Shown: positions 29,368-32,000 of the stretch, piece by piece
How positions within the stretch are numbered: the stretch's first letter is position 1
How the letters are laid out: each line of letters begins with the position of its first letter
Origin: Halalkalibacterium halodurans
GTDB taxonomy: Bacteria > Bacillota > Bacilli > Bacillales > Bacillaceae_D
DNA: 32,000 nt
Direction of reading: 5' to 3'
Assembly: GCF_004376175.1 (NCBI RefSeq)
Contig: NZ_SNUY01000004.1
Coordinates: 9,789-41,788, forward strand
Notes under the pieces: model-generated
Databases searched by the model: none
What the model saw: the letters and a program-made list of their open reading frames with translations, nothing else
Told to the model about the DNA's origin: nothing
Position numbers and translations under genes: made by a program

Positions 29368-30102
29368 TTATCCTTTTACCGAACCAGATGATAAGCCGGC
29401 AATAAAATATTTTTGTAAGAAAAGAAACAAAATCGTCATTGGCAACATTGCCATGAAGGCCGCCGCAGCGACGAGGTTCAAATTGCTTTGGTTTTCTCCA
29501 AAAAAGCTCGCTAAAGCAACGGTCAGCGTATGAACATCTTTGCTTTGCAAAAAGAAAATCGCAAACTGATAATCGTTCCAAATAAACACGCACGAAATAA
29601 TGAGCACTGAAGCTGTGACAGGCTTAAGCAACGGAAAGACGATTCGGAAAAAAATACTAATGGTGTTACACCCGTCAATTTTCGCTGCTTCTTCAAGCTC
29701 TTTCGGGATTGTTGAACGAATGAACCCTGCGTAAAGAAAGATCGTTAGCGGTAAAAATGCAGCTAAATTGTTTAAAATCGCAATCGTTCTCGTATTCAGC
29801 ATCCCTAAATTCACGACCATTTGGTAAAGCGGAACAAGGGCGGTTAACGGGGGAACGACCATAATTGCGACAAAAAAGAGCAAAACGAATCGATTTAATT
29901 TCGTCTCACGTCTCGCTAAAGGATAGGCTGCCATCGACCCAAACAAAATGAGGAGCACCGCTGCACCAGCCGTAATCAACCCAGTATTAATAAACGCATT
30001 TCCTAGGTTGGCACGCTCCCAAGCTGTCGCGAAATTTTCAAGCGTAAAATAGTCCGGTAATGCCCAGCGTGAGCTAAAATCTCCCCGTTCCTTTAGCGCC
30101 AT
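29368..30102 (-). pseudogene. Carbohydrate ABC transporter permease (MalG/BPD_transp_1 type), 5'-truncated by IS insertion
   Basis: EAA loop (EEAAKIDGCNTISIFFRIVFPLLKP) and five TM segments. The ORF begins in the first external loop (..LKERGDFSSRWALPDYFTLENF), so roughly the first 35-40 aa including TM1 are missing. IS-related sequence starts within a few nt of 30103. Confidence 0.8.
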
Positions 30103-30160
30103 CGTGTTAGAGTAAAATATTAGTGGGCAGAAAAAAGGAATTAGAGGAAAAATGTGTAAG

Positions 30161-30207
30161 CTTGTTGGTGAAGGGGGAAGTGGATTTCTTCCCCCTTCAC
30201 CAACAAG
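30161..30207. repeat. Perfect 20-bp stem / 7-nt loop hairpin inside the IS left end
   Basis: cttgttggtgaagggggaag (30161-30180) and cttcccccttcaccaacaag (30188-30207) are exact reverse complements. Confidence 0.95.
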
Positions 30208-30317
30208 ACACCAAGCGGAAGCGCGGTAGATATAAGCATTTTACATGAAAAAAAGGACCTCTTTTTGTATAGTTGATAACATCTAAACCACCAACATACA
30301 AAGAAAGGGTCCTCACT

Positions 30318-31676
30318 ATGAAAGATACCATATCTGAGATCACAATGAAAGCCTTAGAACAACTTACCTTCCGTGCATTACAGGAAAGTTTTACTCAAGT
30401 AATGACCGAGATATTAGTAAAGCTGGATGAAGAAATCGCTGAAAAAAGAGATAAAAAACGCTTCCGTTTTCACGATAAGAAAAAGTTAAGCTTTGAATCT
30501 GTTTTTGGTCGAATTGAATTAAAGCGCGCTTATTATAAAGACCGTGAAAAAGGGCAGTATGTTTACCTTCTCGATCAATATTTGGATTTTGACGGCTCAA
30601 AAGGGATGAGCCCTGTAATACAGGATGTGGCTATGGAGCTCGCTGTCACAGGCGTGTCCTACCGGCAGGCAGGAAAGGCTTTAGAAAAGCTGTTAGGGTA
30701 TCAGGTAATCAGCCACGAAGGTATCCGCCAACAAGTCTTGAATACAGACATCCTTCCAAAGGAGCCGGAAACTGTAGAGCGGGAAGTCCTGTTTGTGGAA
30801 GTGGATGGGCTATACACAAAAAGCCAGGAGAAAAACAGGAAAGGCAGAGAGGTTAAAATCGCCAGTATCCATCAGGGGTGGGAAGTCAACGGAAAGCGAA
30901 CCAGGCTGAAGAAAAAGCGCCACTTTATCCACAAAGGAAAAGGTCCTTTCTGGGAAGCTTTTGAGGATTTCCTGGTGACGAATTATGAGTACGATCCCAC
31001 AAAGCACCACCTAGTCATTAATGGCGATGGGGCGCCCTGGATTACAGCGTGCCGCGATTACTTCCAGCACAATGCGACCTTTGTGATTGACCGGTTCCAT
31101 ATCGCCCGCGATGTGCAAAGAATCTTCCGGGATCACCCGCGTTACCGTTCGATTCGAAAGAAACTGGCAGCCTATGACACAGATGGATTTATGGTGGAGG
31201 TAAACAGTGCGGTCGGCACGATTGAGCAGGAAAAGAAAGAGCAGCGTCTGGAAGAGTTAATCGCCCAGTTATCCCAGTATCCGGAGGCACTGGGGGATTA
31301 CCGGGAGAAGCTGAAGAAGAAAGGCATTGAGACAGAAGGATTTCGCCCAATGGGCAGTGCGGAAGGTATGATGAGTGTGTTTGCCAAAAGGCTAAAAAAT
31401 GGCCGAAGCTGGAGTGCTAAAGGGCTTGATAAGTTTATCGACTTGATGGTTGCATTGAAAGACCGCCTGGAAGTGAAAACCTTAAAGGGCTCCTTAAATC
31501 AGAGCCTCGAACTGGAAGAAGAAAAGAGAACGAAAAAGGATACCAAACCTCCAAAACACTTTGTAGAAAAGCTTAAAAGCAGTGCCGCAGAGGCAACGCG
31601 CAATAACATGGCTTACTTGCAAAACGCTATTGGAAAGCCGATTACAAACGCATTAAAAGGATTGAGAGGATTTTAA
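30318..31676 (+). CDS. ISLre2-family (UPF0236-like) transposase
   Basis: The architecture matches my memory of UPF0236/ISLre2 transposases: YLLDQYL, VEVDGLY, INGDGAPWI, IDRFHIARD. I prefer ATG 30318 (AAGGG 8 nt upstream) over the TTG at 30273. Confidence 0.72.
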   Translation: MKDTISEITMKALEQLTFRALQESFTQVMTEILVKLDEEIAEKRDKKRFRFHDKKKLSFESVFGRIELKRAYYKDREKGQYVYLLDQYLDFDGSKGMSPVIQDVAMELAVTGVSYRQAGKALEKLLGYQVISHEGIRQQVLNTDILPKEPETVEREVLFVEVDGLYTKSQEKNRKGREVKIASIHQGWEVNGKRTRLKKKRHFIHKGKGPFWEAFEDFLVTNYEYDPTKHHLVINGDGAPWITACRDYFQHNATFVIDRFHIARDVQRIFRDHPRYRSIRKKLAAYDTDGFMVEVNSAVGTIEQEKKEQRLEELIAQLSQYPEALGDYREKLKKKGIETEGFRPMGSAEGMMSVFAKRLKNGRSWSAKGLDKFIDLMVALKDRLEVKTLKGSLNQSLELEEEKRTKKDTKPPKHFVEKLKSSAAEATRNNMAYLQNAIGKPITNALKGLRGF

Positions 31677-31726
31677 AAAGGCTGATTTACGGAGCAAAAG
31701 AAAAGCAAAAAGTAAAGAAAGCGCTA

Positions 31727-31752
31727 TCATTTTCAAACATGTTTGAAAATGA
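31727..31752. repeat. 26-bp perfect palindrome downstream of the transposase gene
   Basis: tcattttcaaaca|tgtttgaaaatga has no loop. It lies 51 nt after the transposase stop. Confidence 0.9.
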
Positions 31753-31862
31753 AAACGGAGCGTAGTGGGACGGAATCAGGGAGACTCCTGCGGAAAAACG
31801 GGCCAGACGAGACCCCGCAAGGTGCTTTTCCTGAGGAGGCTCGGCGGTTCGTCCGCGGAAAG

Positions 31863-32000
31863 GTATGAGTAAAATGTTTGTGGGAGAAGAAACAACCTGC
31901 TCAACCAGGTAATGGAAGTTCATTACCTGGTTGAGCAGGCCACCAAGCGAAAGCGCGGTAGGGTTTAAGCAAAATGCATGAAAAAAGGGTCTCTCCTTGG
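31863..32000 (+). mobile_element. Start of a second, diverged copy of the ISLre2-like left end (runs off the window)
   Basis: 31867-31884 gagtaaaatgtttgtggg parallels 30110-30127 gagtaaaatattagtggg. 31940-31961 ccaccaagcgaaagcgcggtag parallels 30208-30229 acaccaagcggaagcgcggtag (20 of 22). The following taagca..catgaaaaaagg.ctct is also shared. Confidence 0.65.
31896..31939. repeat. Perfect 19-bp stem / 6-nt loop hairpin at the equivalent position of the second IS-like left end
   Basis: cctgctcaaccaggtaatg (31896-31914) and cattacctggttgagcagg (31921-31939) are exact reverse complements. The sequence is unrelated to the hairpin at 30161-30207. Confidence 0.95.

Follow-up and report, generated by a model that had tools for sequence, protein, structure and literature searches.

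Why should two insertion sequences (ISs) of one family each carry a flawless hairpin at the same place in their left ends when the two stems are unrelated in sequence? The question is raised by a stretch of 32,000 nucleotides (nt) from Halalkalibacterium halodurans (assembly GCF_004376175.1, contig NZ_SNUY01000004.1, positions 9,789 to 41,788 of the forward strand). Within this stretch, hereafter called the window, are two ISLre2-family left ends, each from a different insertion sequence, designated copy 1 and copy 2. An earlier sequence-only reading had offered two answers, namely selection for structure irrespective of sequence, or a palindrome made or captured anew in each copy. The comparisons presented here support the former. 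Moreover, each hairpin is followed by a short box that recurs next to the primosome site hairpin of phage phiX174, and in microviruses, plasmids and other IS families. We see about an even chance that hairpin and box together form a phiX174-like priming signal on single-stranded DNA (ssDNA), helping to convert the transposition circle to duplex DNA.

A perfect hairpin followed by a shared box

Hairpin 1 (30161-30207, plus strand) consists of a 20-bp perfect stem with a 7-nt loop (arms 30161-30180 and 30188-30207), and hairpin 2 (31896-31939, plus strand) of a 19-bp perfect stem with a 6-nt loop (arms 31896-31914 and 31921-31939). In both, the arms are 100% complementary, and what the two stems share in sequence is limited to the first and the last base pair, so that the sequence-only reading was right on the geometry as well as on the lack of relationship. 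Folded as DNA, the window hairpins reach -26 to -29 kcal/mol, and the single-strand folds of the two regions have z-scores of -7.9 and -7.8, with 0 of 200 shuffles as good. On the same strand, each hairpin is followed by a linker and a box: ACAC and CAAGCGGAAGCGCGGTAG in copy 1 (30208-30229, with the box at 30212-30229), CCAC and CAAGCGAAAGCGCGGTAG in copy 2 (31940-31961, with the box at 31944-31961). The box is the core of block B, one of three blocks that the sequence-only reading had found in both modules, and all three were recovered: block A at 30110-30127 versus 31867-31884 (16 of 18 positions identical), block B at 30204-30229 versus 31936-31961 (88% identity), and the third block at 30233-30256 versus 31966-31989 (79% identity). 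By chance, 0.03 occurrences of the 18-nt core of block B would be expected in the window; there are exactly two.

Block B had been treated as specific to this family, which it is not. The IS box matches nt 2355-2371 of phiX174 except for one extra loop base, and the phage box lies directly 3' of an interrupted hairpin that folds at 2302-2355, within the F-G intergenic region (2285-2394). Between the ISs and the phage, the 17-18-nt box is invariant save its loop, and the hairpin stems have no similarity. The primosome binding site of phiX174 has been placed in the F-G intergenic hairpin, including nt 2305, ahead of gene G, with the site depicted as a fork-like hairpin where PriA, PriB, PriC and DnaT load DnaB (PMC3606162, PMC9865509, PMC5778457). 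The GenBank records of phiX174 hold no annotated feature for it.

The box contains GCGAAGC or GCGNAAGC. Sequences of the form GCGN(N)AGC make an extraordinarily stable DNA mini-hairpin, reported at ssDNA priming sites and bound poorly by SSB (PMC13037366). Taken as GCGNAGC or GCGNNAGC, the motif is present in both window copies on the plus strand, as GCGGAAGC in copy 1 (30215-30222) and as GCGAAAGC in copy 2 (31947-31954). Linker and box together can also fold as a second small hairpin, ACC-AA-GCG(N)AAGCGC-GGT. In relatives sampled by protein similarity the box variants GAAA, GGAA, GATA, GTTA, GGGA and GAA stay within GCGN(N)AGC, with two exceptions.

The stem is inherited, and its structure outlasts its sequence

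Relatives of the window elements were collected by protein similarity as 25 loci from Bacillaceae genomes, 18 of which include upstream DNA, together with further plasmid-borne ones. The left ends of all 18 have a common order, comprising the left terminal inverted repeat (IRL), an A-rich spacer, the long hairpin, a linker (CCAC or CCAG in these relatives), the box CAAGCG(N)AAGCGCGGTAG, the promoter, the leader and the start codon. On the sequence-only reading, its own view would fall if most copies lacked a palindrome at this position. Hairpin followed by box was found in 18 of 18, the box being a one- or two-base variant at 4 of them, and both parts are present in plasmid-borne relatives down to 43% amino-acid identity. 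Among the latter is a relative of copy 1 (73% amino-acid identity) on the Enterococcus hirae plasmid pfas4-2, which has hairpin and box and adjoins an IS21-like element just upstream of the resistance gene cfr. At about 25% amino-acid identity, distant ISLre2 members resemble the others in end and promoter but have neither hairpin nor box. Two single loci depart from the pattern in other ways: an Anoxybacillus plasmid (L029) has an 11-bp hairpin with a run of seven T on the minus strand and no box, and in a metagenome contig (L124) the left repeat is followed directly by the box, the hairpin being deleted and the transposase gene broken.

The IS stems of this module are perfect over 17-24 bp. 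Counting the first 15 stacked positions of the stem in 25 distinct left ends gave 366 Watson-Crick pairs, 1 G·T and 2 A·C, although the left arms are on average only 52% identical. In an arm-anchored alignment of 18 distinct hairpins, each from its own lineage, all 15 stem pairs change on both sides, with 99.3% pairing versus 63% in shuffles; the alignment was built from structure and is hence biased towards it. Cross-pairing, a control independent of that alignment, gave 99.5% pairing for an element's own arms and 64% for arms taken from different elements. These comparisons support selection for the stem structure irrespective of its sequence, as the sequence-only reading had proposed in its first answer. 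The stem sequence is probably free because only the shape of the duplex matters, with its perfection probably helped by quasi-palindrome correction from arm to arm.

The second answer, that the palindrome is generated or captured anew at each transposition, whether as target DNA, as a fold-back or as a copy-specific guide, drew on the unrelated sequences of the two window hairpins. It is contradicted by the copies. Copies of the same element at different sites, and in different species, have identical hairpins (L012-L015, and L005/L009/L017), those of L003 and L007 differ by one loop base, and the stems of neighbouring lineages diverge by graded, compensated changes. The window hairpins are not copy-specific either. 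Copy 1 is found complete on a contig from a different sample (L026), with an identical hairpin, and the element of copy 2 is found on another contig (L113) with an identical hairpin and different flanks. The direct repeats at the insertion sites (CCATTCGTT, CATTTGAAA, TTTGTAAGC and CTGAAATAG) bear no consistent relation to the stems. One hairpin serves different sites, and a guide or bridge RNA and captured target DNA alike were rejected on this comparison of copies. We regard formation anew in each copy as hardly credible. Nor are the hairpins REP-like sequences or host terminators caught between adjacent insertions, since they lie inside the left repeat in every copy and are included in whole-element contigs.

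The module in phages, plasmids and other insertion sequences

A scan of metagenome contigs with the box pattern returned at least 120 loci. ISLre2 left ends make up only about 20 of them, and many of the others also have a long hairpin 3-4 nt before the box. Of 130 distinct sites, 43 have a strong single hairpin whose end is no more than 6 nt from the box, compared with 11 among 1208 positions drawn at random from the same contigs, and the spacing between hairpin and box peaks at 3-4 nt. In microviruses, identified by a Phage_F capsid and Rep, the module is on the coding strand, which is the packaged (viral) strand, in 7 of 8 small contigs, and it is carried by inovirus-like loci with Zot, G2P Rep or a GspD-like secretin. 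The variant GAGGGGTTGGA-CAAGCGAAGCGCG(T/G)(C/T)AG follows a hairpin in more than 1500 enterobacterial plasmids. This plasmid version is clearly the same module as the IS hairpin and box. Of the 794 places found in complete E. coli genomes, 792 are plasmid-borne. The enterobacterial module (L200-L202) is very common on small mobilisable plasmids, as well as on IncX3 plasmids beside a thermonuclease gene.

Among other ISs, IS3-family elements (L041, L127 and L130/L092) have the module between the orfB stop codon and the right repeat. The same arrangement is seen in an annotated IS3 element on a Priestia plasmid, where the box ends just before the right repeat. The module is downstream of a distant UPF0236 transposase in L142 and L055, and adjoins other rve-type transposases in L154 and L089. 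Whenever a transposase could be attributed to the element that holds the module, the module lies on the sense strand of that transposase; in L060, an IS110-family gene is 394 nt away on the opposite strand and is not shown to share an element with the module. Rfam gave no match for the window at the gathering threshold, and a permissive search returned generic hairpins far below threshold. The records that we examined have no feature annotation for the box-and-hairpin module. An 18-nt box after a hairpin of free sequence provides a simple searchable marker, one that appears widespread in microviruses, inoviruses and plasmids across phyla.

A possible priming signal on single-stranded DNA

Which strand matters can be asked of the imperfect pairs. 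Summed over 49 strong hairpins, these number 36 G·T and 2 A·C on the box-sense strand but 3 G·T and 17 A·C on its complement, and the box-sense strand is the more stable fold in 36 cases and the less stable in 12. By this asymmetry, the hairpin acts single-stranded, on the strand that carries the box. In common with a phiX174-type site, then, the module offers a stable hairpin on the strand that would be single and a sequence relationship to the F-G site.

The priming reading joins this to what is known of the transposition pathway. Circular transposition intermediates have been reported for ISLre2 and TnGBS, and in the ISLre2 and IS3 families circles are reported to arise by copy-out-paste-in, in which one strand is bridged and the donor 3'-OH primes copying of the circle (PMC3942029). 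On the proposed scheme, the transposase-sense strand would first be bridged, or made into a circle, and subsequently displaced; once displaced, it would fold into the long hairpin and the small GCGN(N)AGC one; host priming proteins, in Bacillaceae PriA with DnaD, DnaB, DnaI, helicase and primase, would load there; and the second strand of the IS circle would be synthesised, as happens on phiX174 viral DNA. In such a circle the left-end position of the ISLre2 module and the right-end position of the IS3 module both adjoin the junction. Were the displaced strand linear, a site at its right end could do little, which fits a circular template. The ssoW of pWV01, a region resembling the phiX174 primosome assembly site, reportedly primes independently of RNA polymerase in the Gram-positive Lactococcus (PMC4595007), and the idea is therefore plausible in Firmicutes. 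The picture suggests that ISLre2-type elements recruit the host priming machinery to copy themselves. The wider proposal would be that a set of copy-out-paste-in ISs (ISLre2, several IS3-family lineages and other rve-type elements) is equipped, near the circle junction and on the transferred strand, with a dedicated primosome assembly signal like that of phiX174. We hold this more tentatively, at somewhat below an even chance.

Several points weigh against a priming role. Shlomai and Kornberg (1980) reportedly obtained a 55-nt phiX174 fragment activating protein n' (PriA) that ends near nt 2355; if so, the box is just outside the activating fragment. ColE1 is reported to carry a primosome assembly site (PMC4595007), and when ColE1 was checked for the box none was found, so the box would mark a subfamily and not all primosome sites. 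The well-studied copy-out elements of E. coli are apparently without the module, only 2 of the 794 E. coli places being chromosomal. Moreover, the orientation and G·T tests cannot tell ssDNA from RNA, since the viral strand of the phages is also the mRNA strand and the box strand of the ISs is the sense strand; and within the ISLre2 elements the stems are too perfect for the G·T test to have power (1 G·T versus 2 A·C). Finally, the A-rich tract 5' of the hairpin lends the minus strand of ISLre2 elements a terminator-like look. Between the two kinds of single strand, DNA is favoured on three counts: the box variants fit GCGN(N)AGC, with GATA and GTTA misfitting the GNRA loop of RNA; the module is upstream of the promoter in the window elements; and the other carriers are replicons with an ssDNA stage.

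Alternative explanations

The rival closest to ssDNA priming keeps the sense strand and moves the action to RNA. Hairpin and box would then belong to read-in or run-off transcripts, where they could be a barrier, a processing site (for RNase III, for example) or a stabiliser of 3' ends, insulating transposase expression. Perfect 17-24 bp stems on the sense strand speak for it, the hairpin does follow the transposase stop codon in the IS3-type and L142-type elements, and the F-G hairpin of phiX174 has itself been described as a weak terminator and a stabiliser of mRNA. These elements also clearly guard against read-through, and they do so by another device, an anti-Shine-Dalgarno fold-back described below. 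In the window elements, however, the hairpin is upstream of the promoter and is thus missing from the native mRNA. The sense (plus) strand has no U-tract 3' of the hairpin, the next 9 nt holding 0.12 T on average and no T-run, and on that strand the hairpin does not qualify as a rho-independent terminator; no Rfam family matches. The rule that the box variants obey is the one for DNA, the GATA and GTTA loops not being GNRA. An RNA element would also leave unexplained why an invariant box is shared with plasmids and ssDNA phages of other phyla. We consider a role in RNA unlikely, though it is the most substantial of the alternatives. Improbable, and more so than an RNA element, is a site in double-stranded DNA for the transposase or a host architectural protein, either a cruciform or a subterminal site for synapsis of the ends. 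Its appeal is positional. The module is subterminal, 30-55 nt from the tip; with the hairpin left out of the count, the box is about 41 nt from the left tip, which is close to the 44 nt from the right tip to the conserved right-end sequence TGAATCCGCTTTCA, and the latter shares GAAAGCG with the box in inverted orientation. Against this stand the occurrence of the same module in phages, plasmids and IS3-family elements with unrelated proteins, a position and polarity relative to the tip that vary between IS families, the absence of the module from distant ISLre2 members with the same type of end, and the G·T/A·C asymmetry, which indicates a single strand and not a symmetric cruciform.

The opposite strand has also to be considered. 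As an intrinsic terminator on the minus strand, the hairpin would stop transcription leaving the IS across its left end, or set the 3' end of an antisense RNA. The minus-strand tail in ISLre2 left ends is indeed T-rich (on average, 4.9 of 9 nt are T), hairpin 2 is called terminator-like there, and the boxless Anoxybacillus locus, with its 11-bp stem before TTTTTTT, has just this form. Nevertheless, no terminator is called at hairpin 1, the imbalance of G·T and A·C speaks for the opposite strand, the modules of IS3-type elements, phages and plasmids have no upstream A-tract, and the box goes unexplained. ISGka4, an ISLre2 element of Geobacillus, activated a silent gene from 32-40 bp upstream in the opposite orientation (PMC8024623), a case that implies transcription leaving the IS end, by inference the left one. 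Together with an antisense RNA of the IS10 RNA-OUT kind, for which the hairpin, being upstream of the promoter, would have no overlap with the mRNA, the minus-strand terminator was dropped, and we rate its likelihood as very low. Two further candidates were set aside. A class C group II intron inserted after a terminator does not fit, the box being unlike an intron 5' end and there being no room before the promoter; an oriT or HUH nick site seems unlikely, as the stems vary freely while relaxases read specific arms.

Element ends, promoter and gene context

The assignment of the module to the left end of an ISLre2 element, as the sequence-only reading had it, stands, and relatives' repeats supply the boundaries. 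Members of this family have a Mutator-like DDE transposase (Pfam UPF0236, p-MULT 3), inverted repeats of 18-39 bp ending in C, and direct repeats of 8-9 bp (PMC3942029). The window elements conform in the UPF0236 transposase of copy 1 and, as judged from relatives, in their terminal inverted repeats and 8-9 bp direct repeats; relatives of the window transposase are annotated as ISLre2 family transposase. A 23-nt left end, GT(A/T)(T/A)GAGTAAAAT..TGTGGGC, opens every relative, and whole-element contigs also begin there. The window shows left ends only, and right ends were read from the relatives; these, ..GCCCACAAATACTTGACTCAATC, invert block A imperfectly, with agreement at about 17 of 23 positions and C as the final base, and the relatives are flanked by 9-bp direct repeats, one of them by 8 bp. 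Since the right ends are the inverse of block A and direct repeats flank the elements, block A is the IRL, which makes the hairpin internal to the element. On the plus strand, the IRL of copy 1, GTTAGAGTAAAATATTAGTGGGC, occupies 30106-30128, as placed by the shared 23-nt end and by pairing with the right repeat, and that of copy 2, GTATGAGTAAAATGTTTGTGGGA, occupies 31863-31885, copy 2 being a distinct ISLre2-family element that is also present in L113. Between the IRL and hairpin 1 is an A-rich spacer (30129-30160, plus strand), which in relatives varies in length and sequence and is constant in its A-richness.

Downstream of the box in copy 1, a promoter scan places the transposase promoter ATGAAA-17-TATAGT at 30245-30273 (plus strand), with its -35 region in the third block of the sequence-only reading. 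Relatives have an ATGAAA -35 and a TGn-extended -10, the latter at the same place in most of them, including 3 of 4 distant ones. RNA folding revealed a fold-back at 30254-30313 (plus strand) between the promoter spacer and the Shine-Dalgarno sequence, and the complementarity is present in all relatives (L001-L035), kept even in distant ISLre2 elements of Lactobacillaceae. The pairing is possible only in transcripts begun upstream of the native promoter: in these the fold reaches -20.3 kcal/mol and hides the ribosome site, while the native leader is open (-1.9). This fold-back is a protection from read-through activation like that of IS10 and IS50. The transposase of copy 1 follows at 30318-31676 (plus strand), with 452 amino acids and a match to UPF0236 (PF06782) at E = 4e-110.

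Upstream of copy 1 is a flanking host gene for an ABC-transporter permease (29368-30102, minus strand), a 244-amino-acid open reading frame that matches Pfam BPD_transp_1 at E = 2e-19. Block A abuts this truncated frame directly, as the sequence-only reading had noticed, and the permease is interrupted by copy 1, probably with truncation of its N-terminus. On the other side, the 3' non-coding region of copy 1 (31677-31862, plus strand) is cut by copy 2 and is colinear with L026 1576-1761. Read against L026 1576-1902, the arrangement is a nested insertion, copy 2 being inside the 3' non-coding region of copy 1, and the remainder of copy 1, including its right repeat, must be beyond copy 2 and outside the window. 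The L026 copy has its own right end, with the right repeat ..CCCACTAATAGTTGACACAAAC. The same non-coding region of copy 1 includes, at about 31757-31862, a GC-rich repeat (..GGGAGACTCCTGCGG..GACCCCGCAAGG..GAGGAGGCTCGGCGG..CCGCGGAAAG..; about 110-130 nt), with counterparts at L026 1655-1790 and, as a relative, within the 3' region of another ISLre2 element (L010). No Rfam family matches this repeat, and its fold does not stand out clearly from those of shuffles (z = -1.9).

Two features of the ends deserve mention in their own right. All relatives have an outward TTGAC(A/T) in the right repeat, 5 nt from the tip (TTGACA at L026 1862-1867), and the left repeat has an inward TAAAAT 7 nt from its tip (window 30113-30118), the two repeats differing exactly at both positions. 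This resembles a circle-junction promoter, but the 6-10 bp reported between the repeats in circles would give a spacing of 18-22 bp. The right ends of L003-L021 also have a small hairpin with covarying stems (for example GTGAA/TTCAC, TTTGAA/TTCAAA and ATGATGAA/TTCATTAT) around TGAATCCGCTTTCA, the sequence whose GAAAGCG is shared, inverted, with block B; it could be a terminator of the transposase gene or a subterminal site.

Comparison with known systems

The step at issue, from bridged intermediate to duplex circle, is the least understood one in one of the commonest transposition pathways. We know of no cis-acting site for duplex conversion of a single-strand-bridged intermediate, the step being attributed to host replication, and our search of the literature found no paper in which primosome assembly sites or PriA are connected with ISs or with copy-out transposition. 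A priming signal as a standard part of an IS thus appears to be new, the phiX174-type signal itself being already known. If the priming reading is true, a transposition intermediate would be handled like the genome of an ssDNA phage, its second strand primed at a defined site by the host restart primosome; duplex conversion would become directly testable by means of a portable cis signal; and insertion sequences would be linked mechanistically to ssDNA phages and to rolling-circle and conjugative plasmids.

Structured IS ends are familiar from other families, and the likeness there is limited. In elements of the IS200/IS605 and IS91 types, hairpins near the ends also act in single-stranded DNA, but HUH transposases bind and cleave there, and the sequence of these hairpins is conserved along with that of the cleavage sites. 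The ISLre2 transposase, by contrast, is a Mutator-like DDE enzyme, the stem of the module may take any sequence, and replicons devoid of a transposase carry the module too. The bridge RNA of IS110 and other IS guide RNAs resemble the module in being structured non-coding regions in a non-coding IS end, but here no loop or stem matches target or donor, and identical hairpins are found at different insertion sites. The priming signals of plasmids are nearer. The ColE1 site, ssoW of pWV01, and ssiA of pAMbeta1 and of RSF1010 are likewise cis-acting hairpins on a strand that becomes single-stranded, and such ssi and sso signals recruit priming functions of the host or the plasmid; as a class they are heterogeneous in sequence, the ColE1 site being without the box. 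The complementary-strand origins of G4, St-1 and alpha3 have mini-hairpins, GCGAAAGC or GCGTTAGC, and the motif GCGNNAGC in common with the IS box (PMC13037366), and one IS relative (L018) carries GCGTTAGC, as the G4-type origins do. Those origins differ in being read by primase alone, through three specific hairpins, and there is no similarity outside the 8-mer.

The closest counterpart is phiX174 itself. In both systems a hairpin on a single strand is followed by CAAGCGAAGCGCGGTAG, the window boxes being the same bar one extra loop base; in both, the box includes a GCGAAGC-type mini-hairpin; and in both, it is on a strand that exists, or in the ISs would exist, as ssDNA. The differences are of form and of host. 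The phage hairpin is interrupted, with 12 bp plus extensions, in contrast to the perfect 17-24 bp stems of the ISs. Its perfect 12-bp core ends 11 nt before the box, which the extended hairpin abuts, whereas the IS stem ends 3-4 nt before it. And the one is an ssDNA phage of enterobacteria, the other a DDE insertion sequence of Bacillaceae.

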